Assembly: GCF_041248615.1 (NCBI RefSeq)
Contig: NZ_CP158426.1
DNA from: Escherichia coli
GTDB lineage: Bacteria; Pseudomonadota; Gammaproteobacteria; Enterobacterales; Enterobacteriaceae
Reading direction: 5' to 3' (one strand)
Length of the DNA stretch: 64,000 bases
Shown here: piece after piece, positions 6,525 through 37,554 of the stretch
Layout: the number at the start of each line of letters is the position of its first letter
Numbering within the stretch: position 1 is the first letter of the stretch
Translations under genes and position numbers: made by a program
Notes under the pieces: generated by a model
The model's input: only the letters and a program-made list of their open reading frames with translations
Database searches by the model: none
Told to the model about the DNA's origin: nothing

Positions 6525-7798
6525 TTAACTTCCCCTTGTGTCAACGCAATATCGCGATCATCGACCTTGATAGCCGTAATTTCGTTGTCGGATTCGCGGA
6601 AAAAAATCATGAACAGCACGGCGATAATGGCAATCATCACCGCGCCAAAAGTCCACATCCCGGACCAGTTGAAAGTCAGTCCGTTTACCGGTTCCTGATA
6701 AGCGAACATCTTTTCCATCATCACACCGCCAAGACGATAGCCGAGCAAACTGCCGAAGCCCTGGCAGCAGAGCGTGATCAGCCCCTGCGCAGCGGTACGC
6801 ATATGCACGGGGGCTTTTTTATCGACATAGATGTAAGCGGTAACGTAGTAAAAATCGTAACTTACTCCATGCAGCAAAATGCCGAGGAACAGTAACGCGT
6901 AGGTGAAATATTCATCCGCACTACCGTAAATAAAGAAGCCATAGCGGATCGCAGCGGTGACCAGACCAAGTAATAATACCTTTTTGATACCAAAGCGTTT
7001 GGTGAAAAACGGCAATGCCAGCATAAAGAAGATTTCAGAGAACTGGCCGAGCGTCATCCAGCCAGTGGCGTTTTTCATACCGACTTCGGTCAGATAACCG
7101 TTGGCAAAGATGTAATAGAACGCCAGTGGCATCGCAAACAGGAATGAACAGAAGAAAAAGACGAGGAAGTTTTTATCGCGCAGCAGGATCAGCGCATCCA
7201 GGCCGAGCATGACTTTAATGTCCATTTTGCCGGTGCTTTTTGGCGGCGTGTCGGGCAGGAAAAACGCAAACACACCGAGCAGAGCAGAACTTCCGGCGGT
7301 AATCAGCAGCGGGATGTTAGTCGGAGAGATATCGGCATAACCCAGCATTTGCGGCAAAAATCCACATGCCAGACCAGAGGCAATCCAGCCGATAGTGCCC
7401 ATCACACGAATGCGTGGGAAATCACGCTCCACATCCGGCACGTTGGCAAAAGCGATACTGTTAGTCAGCGCAATGGTCGGCATATAGGTTAGCGAGTAGG
7501 CCAGCAGTAACGGGAAGAACCCGGCAAAAGTGGTCTGTTGCGCAGCGAAATACATCAGCGCCGCACCAGCGAACATCAATACCGCCAGCACTTTCTGCGC
7601 CGAGAAAAAGCGGTCAGTGATGGAGCCAACCAGAATTGGCGACAGGATCGCCGCAATGGCGGTACAGGCATACGACCAGCCAATTTCTCCGGCACTAAAA
7701 CCGCTTTTACTTAACCACAACCACAATGGCACAAACCACGCGCCCCAGATAAACCATTCAACAAACATCATGAACGACAGCTTTGCTGTTGTTTTCAT
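6521..7798 (-). CDS. yegT: Nucleoside:H+ symporter family (NupG/XapB-like) MFS transporter
   Basis: 425 aa, multi-pass hydrophobic protein; recalled YegT; first gene of an overlapping yegT-yegU-yegV operon. Confidence 0.8.
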   Translation of the reverse strand: MKTTAKLSFMMFVEWFIWGAWFVPLWLWLSKSGFSAGEIGWSYACTAIAAILSPILVGSITDRFFSAQKVLAVLMFAGAALMYFAAQQTTFAGFFPLLLAYSLTYMPTIALTNSIAFANVPDVERDFPRIRVMGTIGWIASGLACGFLPQMLGYADISPTNIPLLITAGSSALLGVFAFFLPDTPPKSTGKMDIKVMLGLDALILLRDKNFLVFFFCSFLFAMPLAFYYIFANGYLTEVGMKNATGWMTLGQFSEIFFMLALPFFTKRFGIKKVLLLGLVTAAIRYGFFIYGSADEYFTYALLFLGILLHGVSYDFYYVTAYIYVDKKAPVHMRTAAQGLITLCCQGFGSLLGYRLGGVMMEKMFAYQEPVNGLTFNWSGMWTFGAVMIAIIAVLFMIFFRESDNEITAIKVDDRDIALTQGEVK

Positions 7799-8054
7799 CT
7801 TTTAATTCCTTCATGACAGGTAATGTAAGGTACGCGATGACAACACCATTTAATAATACCTTTTAAATACCTTTGCGGTGAAAACTTGACCGCGGTAACA
7901 TTTTTTCTGATGAATCGAGCCAACAGAAAACGCTGAAAAAACATCCAAAAGATGGAAAAACTCGCCTGTAACGACCAGGATTATGATTGCCCGCAAAAGG
8001 CGGGCCAGGACAATCCATAGCCGATATCCAATCGGAATTTACGGGAGCATAGTA

Positions 8055-9107
8055 ATGACAGATATTGCGCAGTTGCTTGGCAAAGACGCCGACAACCTTT
8101 TACAGCACCGTTGTATGACTATTCCTTCTGACCAGCTTTATCTCCCCGGACATGACTACGTAGACCGCGTGATGATTGACAATAATCGCCCGCCAGCGGT
8201 GTTACGTAATATGCAGACGTTGTACAACACTGGGCGTCTGGCTGGCACAGGATATCTTTCTATTCTGCCCGTTGACCAGGGCGTTGAGCACTCTGCCGGA
8301 GCTTCATTTGCCGCTAACCCGCTCTACTTTGACCCGAAAAACATTGTTGAACTGGCGATCGAAGCGGGCTGTAACTGTGTGGCGTCAACTTACGGCGTGC
8401 TGGCGTCGGTATCGCGGCGTTACGCGCATCGCATTCCATTCCTCGTCAAACTTAATCACAACGAGACGCTAAGTTACCCGAATACCTACGATCAAACGCT
8501 GTATGCCAGCGTGGAGCAGGCGTTCAACATGGGCGCGGTGGCGGTTGGTGCGACTATCTATTTTGGCTCGGAAGAGTCACGTCGCCAGATTGAAGAAATT
8601 TCTGCGGCTTTTGAACGTGCGCACGAGCTGGGCATGGTGACTGTGCTGTGGGCCTATTTGCGTAACTCCGCCTTTAAGAAAGATGGCGTTGATTACCATG
8701 TTTCCGCCGACCTGACTGGTCAGGCGAACCATCTTGCGGCAACCATAGGTGCAGATATCGTCAAACAAAAAATGGCGGAAAATAACGGCGGCTATAAAGC
8801 AATTAATTACGGTTATACCGACGATCGCGTGTACAGCAAGTTAACCAGCGAAAACCCGATTGATCTGGTGCGTTATCAGTTAGCTAACTGCTATATGGGC
8901 CGGGCTGGGTTGATAAACTCCGGCGGTGCTGCAGGCGGTGAAACTGACCTCAGCGATGCAGTGCGTACTGCGGTTATCAACAAACGCGCTGGCGGAATGG
9001 GGCTGATTCTTGGACGTAAGGCGTTCAAGAAATCGATGGCTGACGGCGTGAAACTGATTAACGCCGTGCAGGACGTTTATCTCGATAGCAAAATTACTAT
9101 CGCCTGA
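8055..9107 (+). CDS. fbaB: Fructose-bisphosphate aldolase class I
   Basis: ORF 7983..9107 trimmed to [47 protein letters not shown] (350 aa), matching recalled FbaB. Confidence 0.9.
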
Positions 9108-9191
9108 TACGCCTTATACGAACAGCACTACCCCGTATGACGGAAAAGGCGTTTACGTCGCATCCGGCATAAAAACACGCGCACTTTGCTA

Positions 9192-9220
9192 CGGCTTCCC
9201 TATCGGGAGGCCGTTTTTTT
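9192..9220 (+). terminator. Rho-independent terminator downstream of fbaB
   Basis: GC-rich imperfect hairpin GGCTTCCC-TATC-GGGAGGCC followed by a T7 run. Confidence 0.5.
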
Positions 9221-9280
9221 GCCTGTCATTCTGATTAATTTTCGAATTGTCGTTTTTGTGATCGTTATCTCGAGATTTAA

Positions 9281-11480
<2,200 letters not shown>

Positions 11481-29381: not shown

Positions 29382-30628
29382 CAGGAGCGTGCTCCTTTTT
29401 TCGCGTATTCGCGGCTGGTGGCTTTCTCTTCCGGAGTGGTGGCGCTCTGGGCTTCCACTACTTCCACTTTCGCCCCTTCGGTCAGGCGATCAATGCCGTC
29501 TGTCACTACGCGGTCGCCCGCAGAAATACCTGCGCGGATCACCACTTTCTGACTGTCCTGAATGCCCGGCGTCACCAGATGTTTGCTGACCTTGTTTTCG
29601 CTATTCAGCACCCAGACAAAATGGCCTTCGTTGCCCATTTGCAGAGCGGCGGTGGGGATCACTACGGCGTTTTGTTCGGTGTCGACTAACATACGCGCGT
29701 TAACAAACTGATTGGGAAACAGCGCATCATCCTGATTATTAAAGCGTGCTTTCACTTTAATCGTACCGGTAGTGGCATCGATTTGGTTATCGAGACTTAA
29801 CAGCGTGCCTTCACTTAATTTCTTCGAGTTGGTGCGATCCCAGGCTTCAACAACCAGCGGTTTTCCGGCTTTTTGCGCCTGTACTACGGTAGCGATATCG
29901 CTTTCCGGCAGGGTAAAGAGCAAATCGATAGGATGCGTCTGGGTGATCACCACAATCCCGGTGGTATCACCACTGGAGATTTGGTTACCAACATCAACCT
30001 GCTTGAGACCAACGCGACCATCGATTGGTGCGGTGATGCGGCTCCAGTCGAGCTGCAGCTGCGCGCTGGCGACGCTTGCTTCATCAGCCTTAATGGTGCC
30101 TTCGGTTTCACTGACCAGCGCCTGTTGGGCATCCAGCTCCTGGCGGGAGACAAGATTGGTTTTTGCCAGTTGTTGATAACGCGCCAGGTCACGGCGGGCG
30201 TTGGCAAGCGTGGCTTTATCTTTTGCCAGTTGGCCCTGGGCTTGTGCTAATGCAACTTTGAACTGGCTTGGGTCAATTTCTGCCAGTAAATCGCCTGCTT
30301 TGACCTGCTGGCCTTCCTGGAAATGTAACGCCATCAGTTGACCGTCCACGCGGCTGCGCACCGTAACGGTATTAGCGGCGGTAATGGTGCCAAGCCCGGT
30401 GAGATAACGTGGCACAGCTTGTTCTACGGCAGTCGCCGCCTGAACCGGGGCTAATGGGCCGGCACGCATACCACGGCGACCACCCGCTGGCGATTGCTGC
30501 GCTTGTTTCGTCGCCCCTGGGGCTGCACTCTGGGAGTCATTGCGGCCTTGCCAGAACCAGAATGCGGCGATGGCGGCGATAACCAACACGATTACGATTA
30601 CCCAACGGGATTTATAACTGCCTTTCAT
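29381..30628 (-). CDS. mdtA: Membrane fusion protein of the MdtABC efflux system
   Basis: ORF 29381..30775 trimmed to [27 protein letters not shown]... (415 aa); the upstream in-frame extension is unlikely to be coding. Confidence 0.9.
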
Positions 30629-30681
30629 CGTTAAGAGTTTCTCTTCCTGAAACGTTTCACGGAATGATACTAGTGTAGCCA

Positions 30682-30699
30682 GCCAATAAGGGAGAAAAA
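30682..30699 (-). promoter_or_regulatory. Candidate BaeR box upstream of mdtA
   Basis: Minus-strand sequence TTTTTCTCCCTTATTGGC closely matches my recalled BaeR consensus TTTTTCTCCATDATTGGC; located about 55-70 nt upstream of the mdtA start. Confidence 0.5.
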
Positions 30700-30856
30700 T
30701 GGAGGAATTATGAAACACTGTCGGGAATCGTCTGAATGACGGGCACATTTGCGAGCACGCATCCAGTAATAACACATGAAACTATTTTATCTGCAAGTTA
30801 GCGATAGACTGCTTGCATGGCGAAAGGAGGTAAGCCGCCGTTTTCAGCGGGACGCT

Positions 30857-30999
30857 GAAACGGGAAAGCCCCTCCCGAGGAAGGGGCCTTAAATAAGGAA
30901 AGGGTCATGATGAAGCTACTCATCATCGTGGTGCTCTTAGTGATTAGCTACCCAGCATACTAAGACTACCAGGGCGGGGGAAACCCCGCTCTACCCTCA
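30857..30999 (-). ncRNA. Sib antisense RNA (SibB-like), copy 1
   Basis: Minus-strand promoter TTGACA-17nt-TACTTT (31034..31006) and hairpin GCCCCT/AGGGGC followed by U-run near 30857-30887; transcript fully overlaps the ibs ORF. Ends are approximate. Confidence 0.6.
30907..30963 (+). CDS. Type I toxin Ibs (18 aa, MMKLLIIVVLLVISYPAY), IbsB-like
   Basis: Short hydrophobic ORF with SD AAGGAAAGGG upstream; matches recalled Ibs family; too short for the ORF track. Confidence 0.75.
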   Translation: MMKLLIIVVLLVISYPAY

Positions 31000-31184
31000 C
31001 TCCTGAAAGTATGCCTTCACGATAAGATTGTCAATCTGCAGGCTTTGCAGTCTGCGATCCTGCCAGCAAATATTCTTTGCGAGACGTTACGCAATAATCA
31101 CACTGGAAACTATTTTATCCGCAAGTCAGCGATAGACTGCATACAGGGCGAAAGGAGGTAAGCCGACGATTTCAGCGGGACGCT

Positions 31185-31327
31185 GAAACGGGAAAGCCCC
31201 TCCCGAGGAAGGGGCCTTAAATAAGGAAAGGGTCATGATGAAGATACTCATCATCGTGGTGCTCTTAGTGATTAGCTACCCAGCATACTAAGACTACCAG
31301 GGCGGGGGAAACCCCGCTCTACCCTCA
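31185..31327 (-). ncRNA. Sib antisense RNA, copy 2
   Basis: Same promoter and terminator as copy 1, shifted by 328 bp. Confidence 0.6.
31235..31291 (+). CDS. Type I toxin Ibs (18 aa, MMKILIIVVLLVISYPAY), IbsB-like, second copy
   Basis: Same unit as copy 1 shifted by 328 bp; one substitution (L4I). Confidence 0.75.
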   Translation: MMKILIIVVLLVISYPAY

Positions 31328-31513
31328 CTCCTGAAAGTATGCCTTCACGATAAGATTGTCAATCCGCAGGCTTTGCAGTCTGCGATCCTGCCAGCAAATA
31401 TTCTTTGCGAGTCGTTACGCAATAATCACAGAGGAAACTATTTTGGTCACGCGTTAGCGATAGACTGCATTCAGGGCGAAAGGAGGTAAGCCGACGATTT
31501 CAGCGGGACGCTG

Positions 31514-31662
31514 AAACGGGAAACCCTCTCCCGGAGAAGAGGGCTTTTAATAAGGAAAGGGTTATGATGAAGCACGTCATCATACTGGAGATACTCTTAG
31601 TGATTAGCTTCCAGGCTTACTAAGAACACCAGGGGGAGGGAGAAACCTCTCCCTAACCCTCA
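31514..31662 (-). ncRNA. Sib antisense RNA (SibA-like), copy 3
   Basis: Minus-strand promoter TTGACA-17nt-TAATTT; terminator hairpin CCCTCT/AGAGGG plus U-run. Ends are approximate. Confidence 0.55.
31564..31623 (+). CDS. Type I toxin Ibs (19 aa, MMKHVIILEILLVISFQAY), IbsA-like
   Basis: Diverged third unit; SD AAGGAAAGGG conserved. Confidence 0.7.
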   Translation: MMKHVIILEILLVISFQAY

Positions 31663-31843
31663 CTCCTGAAATTATGTCACTCCGCCCTTAGTGTCAATCG
31701 ACGGCTCTCCGTTCTTGCGAGGCGAATAGCAAAATTTTCTGCGCCGCCGGGCCTAATTCTGAAAGTTTCTTCGTTTGCTCTTATTTCATTATTGCAATCG
31801 GTATGATACCGGGCCTCAATAATTCTCTAAGAAAGGATTTCTT

Positions 31844-32503
31844 ATGAGCGAACAAATCACGTTTGCCACCAGCGATTTTGCCAGTAACCCGGAACCACGT
31901 TGCCCCTGCATTTTGCTGCTGGATGTTTCTGGTTCTATGAACGGTAGACCTATTAATGAACTTAACGCCGGATTGGTTACCTTTCGCGATGAGCTGCTTG
32001 CCGATTCGCTGGCCTTAAAAAGAGTGGAACTCGGCATTGTGACGTTCGGCCCGGTGCATGTGGAACAACCCTTTACCAGCGCCGCTAATTTTTTCCCGCC
32101 CATCCTGTTTGCCCAGGGCGATACACCAATGGGCGCTGCCATTACCAAAGCCCTGGATATGGTAGAGGAGCGGAAACGTGAGTATCGTGCAAATGGTATT
32201 TCGTATTATCGCCCGTGGATTTTCCTGATCACCGATGGCGCTCCAACCGATGAGTGGCAGGCTGCCGCCAACAAAGTGTTTCAGGGGGAAGAAGATAAGA
32301 AGTTTGCCTTCTTTTCCATCGGTGTTCAGGGGGCGGATATGAAGACTTTGGCACAAATCAGCGTTCGTCAGCCTTTGCCACTGCAGGGATTACAATTCCG
32401 TGAACTGTTTAGCTGGTTATCCAGTTCGCTGCGTTCGGTTTCCCGCTCCACGCCGGGAACGGAAGTTGTGCTGGAAGCGCCAAAAGGCTGGACGTCAGTG
32501 TGA
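31844..32503 (+). CDS. yegL: von Willebrand factor A (vWA) domain protein, TerY-like
   Basis: 219 aa; MIDAS motif DVSGSM at residues about 27-32 ([12 protein letters not shown]) and later threonine/aspartate positions (LITDGAPTD). Confidence 0.85.
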
Positions 32504-33261
32504 GCTGGCGTCTGGTCTATGCATCAACCGTTGGAACGTCGCACATCAGCGCGGACTTGCCTTGCCAGGATGCCTGCCAGATGCAGGTTGCCTGGTTAAA
32601 TGACCAGCAGCCATTATTGTCGGTATTTGTCGCCGATGGCGCAGGTAGCGTCTCGCAGGGTGGCGAAGGTGCGGAGCTTGCCGTTAATGAAGCGATGGCT
32701 TATATGATGCAAAAATTGCAGGGCGGGGAATTGGGGCTTAATGATGTCCTCGCAACGGATATTGTGCTGACCGTTCGTCAGCGACTTTTTGCCGAGGCGG
32801 AAGCCAAAGAATTAGCTGTTCGCGATTTTGCCTGCACGTTTATGGGATTGATTTCATCAGCTAATGGCACCCTGATTATGCAGATTGGCGATGGCGGCGT
32901 GGTGGTAGATTTGGGGCACGGTCTGCAACTGCCGCTCACGCCGATGGTAGGTGAATATGCCAATATGACACACTTCATTACTGATGAAGATGCCGTTTCC
33001 AGACTGGAAACTTTCACCAGCACTGAGCGTGCGCATAAAGTTGCAGCATTTACGGATGGTATCCAGCGGCTGGCGTTAAATATGCTGGATAATTCTCCCC
33101 ATGTGCCTTTCTTTACCCCGTTTTTCAATGGGCTGGCGTCAGCAACGCAGGAACAACTCGATTTATTACCTGAATTGTTAAAGCAGTTTTTGTCCAGCCC
33201 GGCGGTAAACGAGCGTACGGATGATGATAAAACGTTGGCACTGGCGCTGTGGTTACCATGA
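32500..33261 (+). CDS. yegK: PP2C-family protein Ser/Thr phosphatase
   Basis: 253 aa; GTG start overlapping the yegL stop (GTGA); metal-binding Asp/Gly-rich motif ([30 protein letters not shown]). Confidence 0.85.
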
Positions 33262-35198
33262 AACCCACTTTATATACTGCTACTGGTGAGTGCGTTACGC
33301 CAGGCTGTGAACTGGGCAAAGGTGGCGAAGGCGCGGTTTATGATATCGAGGAGTTTGTCGATAGCGTCGCCAAGATTTATCACACGCCGCCACCCGCCTT
33401 AAAACAGGACAAACTTGCCTTTATGGCTGCGACAGCTGACGCACAGTTGCTGAATTATGTCGCCTGGCCGCAGGCAACGCTTCACGGTGGACGAGGCGGA
33501 AAAGTTATCGGTTTTATGATGCCAAAAGTTTCTGGTAAAGAACCGATTCATATGATCTATAGCCCGGCACATCGTCGCCAGAGTTACCCTCATTGTGCGT
33601 GGGATTTTCTACTCTATGTTGCGCGTAATATTGCTTCATCTTTTGCTACGGTTCACGAGCACGGGCATGTCGTGGGTGACGTAAACCAGAACAGCTTTAT
33701 GGTAGGCCGTGACAGCAAAGTGGTGTTGATTGATAGCGACTCCTTTCAGATTAACGCCAACGGCACACTGCATTTATGCGAAGTCGGCGTGTCGCATTTT
33801 ACGCCGCCAGAGCTGCAAACCTTGCCATCATTTGTCGGCTTTGAACGCACCGCGAATCACGATAATTTTGGCCTTGCGTTGCTGATTTTTCACGTCTTGT
33901 TTGGTGGTCGGCATCCTTATTCCGGTGTACCGCTTATCTCTGATGCGGGTAATGCGCTGGAGACGGATATTGCCCATTTCCGTTATGCCTACGCGTCAGA
34001 TAATCAGCGACGTGGTTTAAAACCGCCGCCACGATCTATTCCGCTGTCGATGTTACCGGGCGATGTTGAAGCCATGTTTCAGCAGGCATTCACGGAAAGT
34101 GGCGTGGCAACCGCGCGTCCGACGGCAAAAGCGTGGGTAGCGGCACTTGATTTACTACGCCAACAGTTAAAGAAATGTACCGTTTCGGCAATGCATGTTT
34201 ACCCCGGTCATTTGACTGACTGCCCGTGGTGTGCGCTGGATAATCAAGGCGTTATCTATTTTATTGATCTCGGCGAAGAGGTCATTACCACCGGCGGTGA
34301 TTTTGTGCTGGCGAAAGTCTGGGCAATGGTGATGGCGTCAGTAGCACCACCAGCATTGCAACTGCCATTACCCGATCATTTCCAACCGACTGGCAGGCCG
34401 CTTCCTTTAGGCCTGTTACGGCGTGAATACATCATTCTGATTGAGATCGCACTGTCAGCGTTATCGCTGCTGCTTTGCGGCCTTCAGGTAGAACCGCGTT
34501 ATATCATTTTGGTTCCCGTGCTGGCGGCTATCTGGATTATTGGCAGCCTGACAAGCAAAGCGTACAAAGCAGAAATCCAGCAACGTCGTGAGGCGTTTAA
34601 TCGCGCGAAAATGGACTATGACCATTTAGTAAGCCAGATCCAACGGCTGGGCGGGCTGGAAGGTTTTATCGCCAAACGGGCGATGATCGAAAAAATGAAG
34701 GACGAAATTCTCGGGTTACCGGAAGAGGAGAAACGCGCTCTGGCAGCACTTCATGACACTGCAAGGGAACGGCAGAAGCAGAAGTTTCTGGAGGGATTTT
34801 TTATTGATGTTGCCTCTATTCCCGGCGTTGGCCCTGCGCGTAAAGCGGCGTTACGGTCTTTTGGTATTGAAACAGCCGCAGATGTTACCCGTCGTGGCGT
34901 TAAGCAAGTGAAAGGGTTTGGCGACCATCTGACCCAGGCGGTTATCGACTGGAAAGCGAGTTGTGAACGCCGTTTTGTGTTCAGGCCGAACGAAGCGGTA
35001 ACGCCTGCAGACAGACAAGCGGTACTGACTAAAATGGCCGCCAAACGACATCGGCTGGAATCGACGTTGACTGTCGGCGCGACAGAGTTGCAGCGATTCC
35101 GCCTTCAAGCTCCAGCACGGACCATGCCGTTGATGGAACCGTTACGTCAGGCGGCAGAAAAACTGGCTCAGGCGCAGGCTGAATTAAGCCGTTGCTGA
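33258..35198 (+). CDS. yegI: Atypical eukaryotic-like Ser/Thr protein kinase with membrane segment and C-terminal HhH-like region
   Basis: ATG overlaps the yegK stop (ATGA); alternative GTG at 33249. Gly-rich loop GKGGEGAVY, candidate Lys in VAKIYH, divergent catalytic loop HVVGDVNQNS, DSD in place of DFG. Confidence 0.8.
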   Translation: MKPTLYTATGECVTPGCELGKGGEGAVYDIEEFVDSVAKIYHTPPPALKQDKLAFMAATADAQLLNYVAWPQATLHGGRGGKVIGFMMPKVSGKEPIHMIYSPAHRRQSYPHCAWDFLLYVARNIASSFATVHEHGHVVGDVNQNSFMVGRDSKVVLIDSDSFQINANGTLHLCEVGVSHFTPPELQTLPSFVGFERTANHDNFGLALLIFHVLFGGRHPYSGVPLISDAGNALETDIAHFRYAYASDNQRRGLKPPPRSIPLSMLPGDVEAMFQQAFTESGVATARPTAKAWVAALDLLRQQLKKCTVSAMHVYPGHLTDCPWCALDNQGVIYFIDLGEEVITTGGDFVLAKVWAMVMASVAPPALQLPLPDHFQPTGRPLPLGLLRREYIILIEIALSALSLLLCGLQVEPRYIILVPVLAAIWIIGSLTSKAYKAEIQQRREAFNRAKMDYDHLVSQIQRLGGLEGFIAKRAMIEKMKDEILGLPEEEKRALAALHDTARERQKQKFLEGFFIDVASIPGVGPARKAALRSFGIETAADVTRRGVKQVKGFGDHLTQAVIDWKASCERRFVFRPNEAVTPADRQAVLTKMAAKRHRLESTLTVGATELQRFRLQAPARTMPLMEPLRQAAEKLAQAQAELSRC

Positions 35199-35210
35199 GC
35201 CAGTTTTCAA

Positions 35211-36563
35211 TTAACGAAACACCACTTCCGCCCAGCGTGCCAGCCCGGCGGTGACGGAGCCAAAGTCATCGCCGCCTGCAATCGGAATGCCCGGCAACTG
35301 TTCTGCCAGCGCCTTTTTAATCAGCGGTGAACGGGCGCTACCGCCGGTCAGGTAGATAACGTCCGGTTTTTCCTGGGCGTTATCCAGGGCCAGTTGCACC
35401 TGTTCCAGAATCCGCGCCAGTGGCTGGCTGAGGGCGCTTTCCAGCCCTTGCTGGCTAATCAGCGTAGCCAGTTCATCGCTGATAAACGGCAGTGAGGCGC
35501 GGGTTTCCGCTACGCTTGAAAGCGCAATTTTGCTCTCTTCTGCGCTACGTACCAGGCGATAGCTTAAACGCTGACGCCAGACTTTCTGTAACAGGGCCAC
35601 TTTTTCCGGTTCGCGGGCATCGCGTACCAGATCGTTAAGCAGACGACCGTTGGCACTACTGTAGAAATCACTTTGCGCAGGGACGTCGTTGATGGCAACC
35701 GCATTCCACCACGGCAGAATCGGCAGGGCGATGCCTTTTTCGGTTTCGCCCCCCATGCCCAGTAACGGCATCAGGTTTTTAAACGCCAGTGCGATATCCA
35801 GATCGTTACCGCCAATACGGCAACCACTGTGACCCAGCAGGCTGGCTTCACGATCGAGACGCGAACGCCACTGCGGCCCCATCAGCAGCAATGAACAGTC
35901 AGTCGTACCACCGCCGATATCCACCACCAGCACCCGTTTTTCTTCCTGCAAGGTGGCTTCGTAATCCAGCCCAGCCGCGACCGGCTCGTACTGGAATACC
36001 ACATCCTTAAACCCGGCACGCTTCGCCGCGCGTTCCAGAATCCCCTGCGCCTGGGTGTTTGCTTCATCGCCGCCAAGCCCCTGGAAGTTGATAGGGCGAC
36101 CAATTACCGCCTGAGTAATCGCATCCGGCAGCTGTGCCTGCGCCTGCTGGCGAATGTGCAACATCATTGCGCAGACCAGATCCTCAAACAGCGCTACCTG
36201 CTGCGGTTTTAAGCCGCTGGCACCGAGGAACGATTTTGGTGATTTCACAAACCACACTTCTTCTGGATCATCAATGTACTGTGCCAGTGAGGAAAGACCG
36301 AACTGCACGCTTTTCGCCGTAACATCGATATCTTCTTCGCGGTTATAACGAATCGCCCGACGCAACAGCGCCTGCGTTTCATCGTCGTCTGCCGGAACAT
36401 CATGATGGCGGTACAGCCATTCGCTTACCGCTTCACGCGTTGGCGCGCAAAGCATTGAAGGCAGCAGCGTGCTGTCGTTTTCCATTTTCAGTAATTGCGG
36501 CTTACCGTCGCGCATGACCGCCACTGAACAGTTTGCTGTACCGTAATCAAAACCAATAAACAC
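35211..36563 (-). CDS. yegD: Hsp70/actin-like ATPase-fold protein (DnaK paralog)
   Basis: ORF 35211..36626; proposed GTG start at 36563 gives 450 aa beginning (V)FIGFDYGTANCSVAVM; Hsp70 phosphate-binding motifs (VVDIGGGTTDCS). Confidence 0.8.
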   Translation of the reverse strand: MFIGFDYGTANCSVAVMRDGKPQLLKMENDSTLLPSMLCAPTREAVSEWLYRHHDVPADDDETQALLRRAIRYNREEDIDVTAKSVQFGLSSLAQYIDDPEEVWFVKSPKSFLGASGLKPQQVALFEDLVCAMMLHIRQQAQAQLPDAITQAVIGRPINFQGLGGDEANTQAQGILERAAKRAGFKDVVFQYEPVAAGLDYEATLQEEKRVLVVDIGGGTTDCSLLLMGPQWRSRLDREASLLGHSGCRIGGNDLDIALAFKNLMPLLGMGGETEKGIALPILPWWNAVAINDVPAQSDFYSSANGRLLNDLVRDAREPEKVALLQKVWRQRLSYRLVRSAEESKIALSSVAETRASLPFISDELATLISQQGLESALSQPLARILEQVQLALDNAQEKPDVIYLTGGSARSPLIKKALAEQLPGIPIAGGDDFGSVTAGLARWAEVVFR

Positions 36564-36696
36564 GAAATAATCCCCATGCCGGTGAAGAAGGGGCGTGACT
36601 TTAGCGAAATGTTGCCGTCGCGACAACCGGAATATGAAAGCAAAGCGTAGCGTCTGAATAACGTTTATGCTGAAAGCGGATTAACAAGGAGATGCG

Positions 36697-37554
36697 ATGT
36701 ATACCCTGAACTGGCAGCCGCCGTATGACTGGTCGTGGATGTTGGGATTTCTCGCCGCCCGTGCGGTGAACGGTGTGGAAACGGTCGCTGACGATTATTA
36801 TGCCCGTAGTCTGGCGGTGGGCGAATATCGCGGCGTGGTGACTGCTATTCCGGATATAGCCCGCCATACTCTGCACATAAATTTAAGTGCAGGTTTAGAA
36901 CCTGTTGCCGCAGAGTGTCTGGCGAAAATGAGCCGCCTGTTTGATCTGCAATGTAACCCGCAGATTGTTAACGGTGCGTTGGGCAAGTTAGGCGCGGCGC
37001 GGCCCGGATTGCGTTTACCCGGCAGTGTTGATGCTTTTGAGCAGGGCGTGCGGGCGATTTTAGGCCAACTGGTGAGCGTGGCGATGGCGGCAAAATTGAC
37101 CGCCAGAGTGGCACAGCTTTATGGCGAACGGCTGGATGATTTTCCGGATTATGTCTGCTTCCCCACGCCTCAGCGGCTGGCAGCAGCCGACCCGCAGGCA
37201 TTAAAAGCGTTAGGTATGCCGTTGAAACGGGCAGAGGCGCTGATTAATCTGGCAAATGCGGCGCTGGAGGGCACCTTACCAATGACAATTCCGGGCGACG
37301 TAGAGCAAGCGATGAAAACGCTGCAAACTTTTCCGGGTATCGGGCGCTGGACGGCGAATTATTTCGCCTTACGTGGCTGGCAGGCGAAAGATGTTTTCCT
37401 GCCGGATGATTATCTGATTAAACAGCGATTTCCGGGAATGACACCGGCACAAATCCGCCGTTATGCCGAACGCTGGAAGCCCTGGCGTTCTTATGCGCTG
37501 TTGCATATCTGGTATACGGAAGGCTGGCAACCAGACGGAACGGACGAATTGTAG
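36697..37554 (+). CDS. alkA: DNA-3-methyladenine glycosylase II
   Basis: 285 aa MYTLNWQPPYDWSWMLGFLAARAVNGVETV...; HhH-GPD glycosylase. Confidence 0.9.
   Translation: MYTLNWQPPYDWSWMLGFLAARAVNGVETVADDYYARSLAVGEYRGVVTAIPDIARHTLHINLSAGLEPVAAECLAKMSRLFDLQCNPQIVNGALGKLGAARPGLRLPGSVDAFEQGVRAILGQLVSVAMAAKLTARVAQLYGERLDDFPDYVCFPTPQRLAAADPQALKALGMPLKRAEALINLANAALEGTLPMTIPGDVEQAMKTLQTFPGIGRWTANYFALRGWQAKDVFLPDDYLIKQRFPGMTPAQIRRYAERWKPWRSYALLHIWYTEGWQPDGTDEL

Follow-up and report, generated by a model that had tools for sequence, protein, structure and literature searches.

YegD of Escherichia coli, a Stand-Alone Hsp70-Type Nucleotide-Binding Domain That Probably Owes Its Place beside a Kinase–Phosphatase Triad to Cassette Insertion

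Introduction

A protein with an Hsp70-type nucleotide-binding domain (NBD) can be compared with several kinds of described relatives: with DnaK and the other canonical Hsp70s; with the eukaryotic Hsp110/Sse1 and Ssz1, which retain a substrate-binding domain (SBD); and with HSPA13/STCH, a eukaryotic atypical Hsp70 that consists of the NBD only. In this paper, we try to place one such protein, YegD, the product of the gene yegD, in a stretch of Escherichia coli chromosomal DNA of 64,000 nucleotides (NCBI RefSeq assembly GCF_041248615.1, contig NZ_CP158426.1), and by "the window" we mean that whole stretch. The gene is already known and annotated in E. coli. An earlier note, made from the letters of the window, had named it, had recognized an Hsp70/actin-fold ATPase paralog in its product, had supposed that the product, which is shorter than DnaK, might have a reduced or divergent SBD, and had raised the idea of a partnership with the neighboring triad yegL-pphC-yegI (pphC is also called yegK), which has the TerY-P-like composition of vWA, PP2C phosphatase, and Ser/Thr kinase. 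What, then, is YegD: a small chaperone, an instrument of the module next door, or something else?

Triads of the TerY-P type bring in a further relative. They accompany Hsp70-like ATPases called CnuD in some CoCoNuT restriction systems, and they can also act as stand-alone phage defence; CnuD itself has an NBD plus an SBD (plus HEAT), has degenerate ATPase motifs, and is associated with an McrB-like GTPase/DUF2357 (PMC10542128).

We think it probable that YegD is an Hsp70-type NBD without an SBD, vertically inherited and expressed from its own promoter, and that its adjacency to yegI is a by-product of the insertion of a cassette. What the analysis adds to the earlier note is a comparative confirmation of the GTG start, the replacement of a reduced SBD by no SBD at all, and the failure of the triad partnership in a co-conservation check. 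E. coli has few conserved proteins of the Hsp70 fold whose function is putative, and YegD is among them; the atypical Hsp70s of bacteria would gain a new class from a defined role, if one is found. The window itself offers nothing beyond database content that would make this function newly tractable.

A Nucleotide-Binding Domain That Stands Alone

The gene is yegD, as the earlier note had it. Residues 1–450 of the product match positions 1–450 of the 450-position NCBIfam equivalog model NF008673 (YegD) with 810.7 bits against a cutoff of 331, and the RefSeq annotation of a near-identical strain gives yegD the same coordinates and the same GTG start. Nothing of substance separates it from the described YegD family (NF008673 / PRK11678, with the YegD of K-12), for it is the same gene; the label "molecular chaperone" that the family carries asserts a function that is putative. 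Positions 35000–36800 of the window are 100% identical in several complete E. coli genomes, and the product is 98% identical to the main E. coli cluster. This is a real gene under constraint, with a dN/dS of 0.05–0.08 against four other genera (all of them without the triad) and, that is, under strong purifying selection.

All of the hallmarks of an Hsp70 superfamily NBD are present: an actin-fold ATPase that carries the phosphate-1, phosphate-2, and adenosine motifs together with a catalytic Lys and a catalytic Glu. Across 92 family members, D6, G8, K110, E193, D215, G217, G219, T220, D222, and G407–G408 are invariant, and they correspond to D8, K70 (K110), E171 (E193), D194, T199 (T220), D201, and the adenosine-motif glycines of DnaK. 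Motif, fold, and profile evidence together bear out the Hsp70/actin-fold paralog that had been read from the motifs.

How much of an Hsp70 is it? The Pfam HSP70 match takes up only the N-terminal part of a 599-position model. When compared with PDB sequences, by phmmer and by a profile of the 92-sequence family, YegD maps onto residues 4–378 of DnaK alone, and onto other NBD fragments as well. The profile alignment runs in three blocks (YegD 3–43 on DnaK 4–44, 85–263 on 42–236, and 339–448 on 260–378), the second of which has a 27-residue gap in YegD opposite DnaK ~75–101; residues ~44–88 and ~264–338, which fall outside the blocks, are therefore specific to YegD. An AlphaFold2 (AF2) model (pLDDT 95.7, pTM 0.92) has a single NBD-like fold in which both of these segments are helical, and its top Foldseek matches are all Hsp70 NBDs (E ~1e-20), the best being those of Hsp70/Hsp110. 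Lobe IB is remodeled, with a helical hairpin present at ~44–88 and the counterpart of DnaK ~75–101 missing, and lobe IIB carries a helical insertion of ~75 residues (264–338) with the conserved, family-specific G269, Q297, and F300.

The length of YegD over and above a 380-aa NBD is thus a matter of insertions within the NBD. The chain finishes with the last helix of the NBD (the one aligned with DnaK 378); interdomain linker, beta-sandwich SBD, and lid are all missing, and 10 longer members of the family have no additional domain, apart from one NeuB fusion that is probably a gene-call artefact. Because nothing follows the NBD and the longer relatives have nothing extra either, YegD is a stand-alone, SBD-less Hsp70-type ATPase and not a DnaK with a reduced SBD; the reduced or divergent domain of the earlier note gives way before an alignment confined to DnaK 4–378 and a model that is a single NBD.

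With DnaK and the canonical Hsp70s, YegD shares the fold, the ATPase motifs, and all of the catalytic residues; unlike them, it is without linker, SBD-beta, and lid, and its lobes IB and IIB are altered. The NCBIfam models of DnaK and HscA give it 57–85 bits, far below their cutoffs of 620–1019. Identity to the eukaryotic atypical Hsp70s (Hsp110/Sse1, Ssz1, and HSPA13/STCH) is 20–22%; Hsp110, Sse1, and Ssz1 keep an SBD, whereas YegD does not, and any functional equivalence is putative.

What Such a Domain Might Do

With its fold and conserved residues in mind, we infer that YegD binds ATP, hydrolyzes it, and alternates between open and closed forms. It would be unable to clamp polypeptides as DnaK does, and because it would not clamp them, its output would have to pass through protein contacts of the NBD itself. 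The likeliest mechanism would be an ATP-driven conformational switch that acts through such contacts, and YegD would be akin to the atypical Hsp70s (Hsp110/Sse1, Ssz1, and the NBD-only HSPA13) and not to a classical chaperone.

Contacts with what? A special case of this proposal would have YegD serve as an exchange or regulatory factor of DnaK or HscA by NBD–NBD contact, in the manner of Hsp110/Sse1 and mainly under iron limitation. The lack of an SBD is consistent with such a role, as is the appearance of yegD in an overexpression screen for H2O2 resistance described in the literature, and as is its regulation: RyhB, the small RNA (sRNA) of iron starvation, activates the translation of yegD, as found by ribosome profiling and with lacZ fusions, of which the translational one responded and the transcriptional one did not (PMC4666370). 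Against it, interaction data were not found in the literature searched, and no conserved neighbor suggests a partner at 82 yegD-family loci, which are the window and 81 others (Salmonella, Citrobacter, and 77 species loci included, the 77 coming from a one-genome-per-species scan of GTDB with yegD-family genes of 27–90% identity). We regard this special case as unlikely.

The Triad Next Door

yegD lies tail to tail with yegI. The open reading frame (ORF) of yegI ends at 35198, that of yegD at 35211, and the gap of 12 bp between them (35199–35210) is just the convergent layout that the earlier note had described. Does such closeness say anything about function? The order of genes in RefSeq is mdtB, mdtA, three ibs toxin genes, yegL, pphC (yegK), yegI, yegD, alkA, and dgcE. 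In Salmonella enterica and Citrobacter freundii, it is dgcE-alkA-yegD-ibs-mdtA, and the triad is absent. Homologous DNA in Salmonella and Citrobacter extends through yegD, breaks off exactly at 35211 (the stop codon), and resumes at 31680, and what lies between is therefore a segment specific to Escherichia. Farther afield, tblastn with YegI, YegK, and YegL found none of them within 10 kb of the 81 other yegD-family loci, and clustering of the 1241 neighboring ORFs of all 82 loci gave no recurrent neighbors outside the enterobacterial dgcE/alkA/mdtA synteny.

The triad, for its part, lives elsewhere without yegD. The closest relatives of YegI outside Escherichia (58–62% identity) are those of Klebsiella spallanzanii, Piscinibacter aquaticus, and Chromobacterium haemolyticum, and in each of these genomes, there is a compact vWA-PP2C-kinase cassette of about 60% identity, each time in a different neighborhood rich in defence and mobile genes. 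In Klebsiella, the neighbors are GmrSD, type I restriction-modification, SymE, and BrnA; in Piscinibacter, they are an SLFN-like helicase, a MazG-like protein, ScoMcrA_N, BrxR, and JetB; and in Chromobacterium, they are AbiH, a KAP NTPase, and Tn7-like TniQ/TniB. No HSP70-family gene stands near the triad at any of the three loci. The neighborhood of the K. spallanzanii triad has neither yegD nor alkA, and the yegD of K. pneumoniae adjoins alkA, udk, dcd, and asmA.

yegD is not co-inherited with the triad. The partnership that had been raised does not survive the check for co-conservation, for outside Escherichia the neighborhood of yegD is without the triad, and elsewhere the triad is without an Hsp70-like gene. 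Within E. coli, the covariation of the two is uninformative, because both are core (the triad is present in 5416 and yegD in 5417 of 5426 complete genomes). As strong purifying selection acts on yegD in genera that have no triad, its function is independent of the triad, and the adjacency of yegD and yegI is not evidence of function. The simplest history is that a mobile TerY-P-like cassette was inserted beside an ancestral yegD in the Escherichia lineage. We take yegD to be an old, vertically inherited, monocistronic gene, served by a promoter of its own and preceded by a conserved leader; the vWA-PP2C-kinase cassette would have entered the spacer between yegD and ibs; and the two units would share a bidirectional terminator only, with convergent transcriptional interference as a possible consequence.

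Several points weigh against this account, and some of them speak for the alternative that YegD works together with YegL-PphC-YegI, be it as substrate, as effector, or as dedicated chaperone. The adjacency of 12 bp is fixed in Escherichia, including E. marmotae, where the arrangement is the same as in E. coli, and the two units have a probable common terminator and convergent, overlapping transcription. Since both are core in E. coli, a functional link peculiar to this lineage and acquired after the insertion is possible. The gene yegJ, which the window lacks, is inserted within the triad of K-12-type strains, and its overexpression strongly raises yegD mRNA in K-12 (PMC13232886). There is also the precedent of the Type II/III-A CoCoNuTs, in which TerY-P triads co-occur with Hsp70-like proteins (PMC10542128). 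Apart from any partnership, the literature searched held no biochemical data on the activity of YegD, and it is for this reason that ATP hydrolysis and mode of action are read here from conserved residues and fold; and the promoter assigned to yegD is a weak match to the consensus, at 8 of 12 positions.

We nevertheless find a working partnership quite improbable. The orthologs of yegD are syntenic and strongly constrained in genera without the triad, no triad gene turned up near the 81 other loci, the three independent copies of the triad have no Hsp70-like neighbor, and in Klebsiella the two units are found in separate surroundings. The precedent of CnuD does not fit yegD, because co-inheritance is lacking and the architecture is different: set against the published description, YegD is an NBD only and has its motifs and catalytic residues intact, whereas CnuD has NBD and SBD and degenerate motifs. 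The annotation of the yegD locus shows neither an McrB-like gene nor a HEPN nuclease, and the recurrent neighbors include no McrB-like genes or nucleases. With PADLOC-DB 2.0, the sole match of YegD is to 27 residues of PDC-M61B at the phosphate-2 motif (E 1e-5), which does not make it a defence protein.

Actin-Like or DnaK-Like?

That YegD should be a filament-forming protein like actin or MreB is very improbable. One paper names it an actin family protein, and Pfam MreB_Mbl reaches 35.7 bits, but this match spans 56 residues only, around the phosphate-2 motif. The NCBIfam models of MreB give 26–39 bits against cutoffs of 293–515, Hsp70-specific residues such as K110 are invariant, and YegD scores lower against MreB/bacterial actins and EutJ than against Hsp70 NBDs.

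Hardly to be believed, finally, is that YegD should be a DnaK-type chaperone of the classical kind whose SBD is shortened or divergent. Its match to Pfam HSP70 and the name "molecular chaperone" given to the product in RefSeq might speak for this, but the alignment with DnaK stops at NBD residue 378, the AF2 model is a single NBD, the 10 longer relatives add no domain (the NeuB fusion aside), the residue equivalent to DnaK R167 (which we take to be the J-domain contact) is not Arg in the YegD family, and J-domain ORFs adjoin only 2 of the 82 loci. No conserved J-protein or GrpE partner gene, such as might be looked for beside a canonical Hsp70, was found near the yegD-family loci.

The loci with a J-domain ORF belong to two Pseudomonas species, and the YegD homologs there are of 30% identity. 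There, a divergent J-domain protein of ~315 aa is encoded ~320 bp from the YegD-like gene (L037 7300–8244 and L044 8729–9688); at other Pseudomonas loci, no J-domain protein was seen beside the YegD-like gene.

Start Codon, Leader, and Promoter

A mechanically made list of ORFs has yegD at 35211–36626 on the minus strand, with 471 aa from a TTG, which is 21 codons more than the 450-aa product from the GTG. The earlier note had remarked on the extension, and it stands as a mechanical difference in ORF length; the note's preference for the GTG at 36563 is confirmed by the full-length match to NF008673, the N termini of homologs, the alignment of upstream DNA, and the breaks in the upstream frame. 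Orthologs in 12 genera begin at an aligned GTG or ATG with the first residues MxxGFDYGT, and 21 homologs, down to 36% identity, begin MxxG(F/I)D(Y/F)GT, with the phosphate-1 motif at residues 3–10, as in DnaK. When the upstream DNA of 8 Enterobacterales is aligned, the column of the start codon has GTG in six and ATG in two, and the Shine–Dalgarno (SD)-like GGGGA sits inside a block, GGCATGGGGA, that is invariant in these sequences. The length of the spacer from GGGGA to the start codon is not constant, being greater by 1 nt in Citrobacter and by 5 nt in Enterobacter Ag1, and these insertions shift the upstream frame while the nucleotides themselves stay conserved. Translated in frame, the DNA upstream gives unrelated peptides in Citrobacter and stops 3–16 codons upstream in other genera. 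Because orthologs start at the GTG or ATG and the frame above it is broken by indels and stops, the 21-codon extension is, as judged from the sequences, not coding. The TTG at 36626 has no SD-like element; it is part of TTGTCG and is invariant in the upstream alignment.

What, if not codons, keeps this DNA from changing? Between 36570 and 36603, E. coli differs from Salmonella, Citrobacter, Enterobacter, and Superficieibacter at 1–2 of 34 nt, whereas 59–67% of the synonymous sites of the coding region differ in the same intergenus comparison that gave the dN/dS, and for that reason the conservation of TAAAGTCACGCCCCTTCTTCACCGGCATGGGGAT points to a constrained promoter and leader. TAAAGTCACGCCCCTTCTTCACCGGCATGGGGAT would comprise the probable −10 hexamer TAAAGT and then a 5′ untranslated region (UTR) of ~28 nt with the SD-like element, transcription being predicted to start near 36591. 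A promoter scan with a threshold of 9 of 12 matches left the proposed yegD promoter below that threshold.

Because RyhB is reported to activate the translation of yegD, TAAAGTCACGCCCCTTCTTCACCGGCATGGGGAT may carry a regulatory 5′ UTR. The predicted energy of RyhB–yegD pairing is poor, according to a review (PMC7154689). The RyhB sequence used as query has a 100% identical match in E. coli, in the interval from yhhY to yhhX; we propose no site of pairing in the yegD leader, RNAduplex having done no better there than with shuffles (73% scored as well). A leader hairpin that would sequester the SD was rejected: its predicted stem, CCCC:GGGG, is of 4 bp, its stability does not exceed that of shuffles, and covariation is absent. 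No Rfam family was found within 35000–36900 at E up to 1.

A larger proposal can be built from these parts, although we give it little credence: SBD-less YegD would fold no proteins on its own but would regulate another machine by way of NBD contacts (e.g., DnaK, HscA, or the proteostasis of Fe–S and oxidative stress), RyhB would switch on its translation through the unusually conserved leader of ~30 nt, and in Escherichia, its expression would be coupled to the defence-like TerY-P cassette by convergent transcription that crosses the common terminator.

A Probable Terminator Shared with yegI

A strong palindromic hairpin of 50 nt, with a stem of 13–14 bp, takes in the 12-bp gap together with the final 39 nt of yegI. 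On the plus strand, its minimum free energy comes to −37.3 kcal/mol (z −4.96), and none of 200 shuffles is as stable; on the minus strand, z is −3.53, and 1 of 200 shuffles is as stable. No equivalent hairpin follows yegD in Salmonella or Citrobacter, and none follows the yegI homologs of Klebsiella, Piscinibacter, and Chromobacterium. This is probably a bidirectional intrinsic terminator common to yegD and yegI, a reading that fits the listing of yegD-yegI among pairs with convergent, overlapping transcription (PMC12288877). It is the sole link found between yegD and the triad.

Features and Neighbors

Table 1. Coordinates in the window of yegD, of its upstream and downstream elements, and of the neighboring triad.
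Feature	Position	Strand	Basis or remark
yegD coding sequence	35211..36563	−	450 codons + stop; ORF/translation, RefSeq, NF008673, Pfam, AF2, dN/dS
GTG initiation codon of yegD	36561..36563	−	ortholog alignment, family model position 1
SD-like GGGGA	36571..36575	−	read from sequence; 7 nt upstream of GTG
21-codon "extension," noncoding leader/promoter DNA	36564..36626	−	frame-breaking indels, upstream stops
Conserved leader block TAAAGTCACGCCCCTTCTTCACCGGCATGGGGAT	36570..36603	−	near-invariant across Enterobacteriaceae
Probable −10 hexamer TAAAGT	36598–36603	−	within TAAAGTCACGCCCCTTCTTCACCGGCATGGGGAT
Probable −35 hexamer TTGTCG	36621..36626	−	17 nt upstream of TAAAGT; read from sequence
Palindromic hairpin, A-run on one side and T-run on the other	35159..35208	both	folding vs. 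shuffles; last 39 nt of yegI + 12-bp gap
Escherichia-specific segment (context)	31681..35210	+	between yegD stop and ibs/sib repeats; homology break
yegL	31844–32503	+	annotation
pphC/yegK	32500–33261	+	annotation
yegI	33258–35198	+	annotation

The mobile yegL-pphC-yegI cassette, with its defence-island contexts in other genera, is the more interesting object nearby. It spans 31844–35198 in the window, 6587–9959 in the K. spallanzanii locus (L084), 6579–9941 in L085, and 6574–9947 in L086, and adjacent genes of the triad in the window overlap by 4 bp each. YegI, a Ser/Thr kinase, is dephosphorylated by PphC (bioRxiv 10.1101/303594). At its C terminus, there is a match to Pfam HHH_5 below threshold (E 0.0011; 19.9 bits, where the cutoff is 27 bits), and its homologs go by the name of helix-hairpin-helix domain proteins in the sources; other TerY-P triads have an OB-fold and a zinc ribbon (PMC10542128), to which YegI has no match. 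PADLOC models did not recognize YegL and YegK. The triad may be an unclassified defence module of the TerY-P-like kind, whose kinase has a possible C-terminal helix-hairpin-helix domain.

yegJ lies between pphC and yegI, and splits the triad operon, in 4 of the 12 spread-sampled E. coli genomes listed; the triad of the window is uninterrupted. On the far side of the cassette, between mdtA and yegL, the ibs/sib type I toxin–antitoxin repeat is present in three tandem copies (30543–31680), and at the equivalent place in Salmonella and Citrobacter, there is one copy.

On the other side of yegD, alkA is intact in the window (36697–37554, 285 aa) and aligns over 280 residues with the 282-aa AlkA of E. 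marmotae. In the closest RefSeq strain, NZ_AP022087, which is 99.4% identical to the window across 15.8 kb with one indel, alkA is annotated as a frameshifted pseudogene. Upstream of alkA, a plus-strand element, ATGAAAGCAAAG, is conserved at 36634–36645; it resembles what we take to be the Ada-box (AAAGCAAA) of the alkA promoter, and if ATGAAAGCAAAG is an Ada-box, the promoters of alkA and yegD would stand back to back in the intergenic region of 133 bp.

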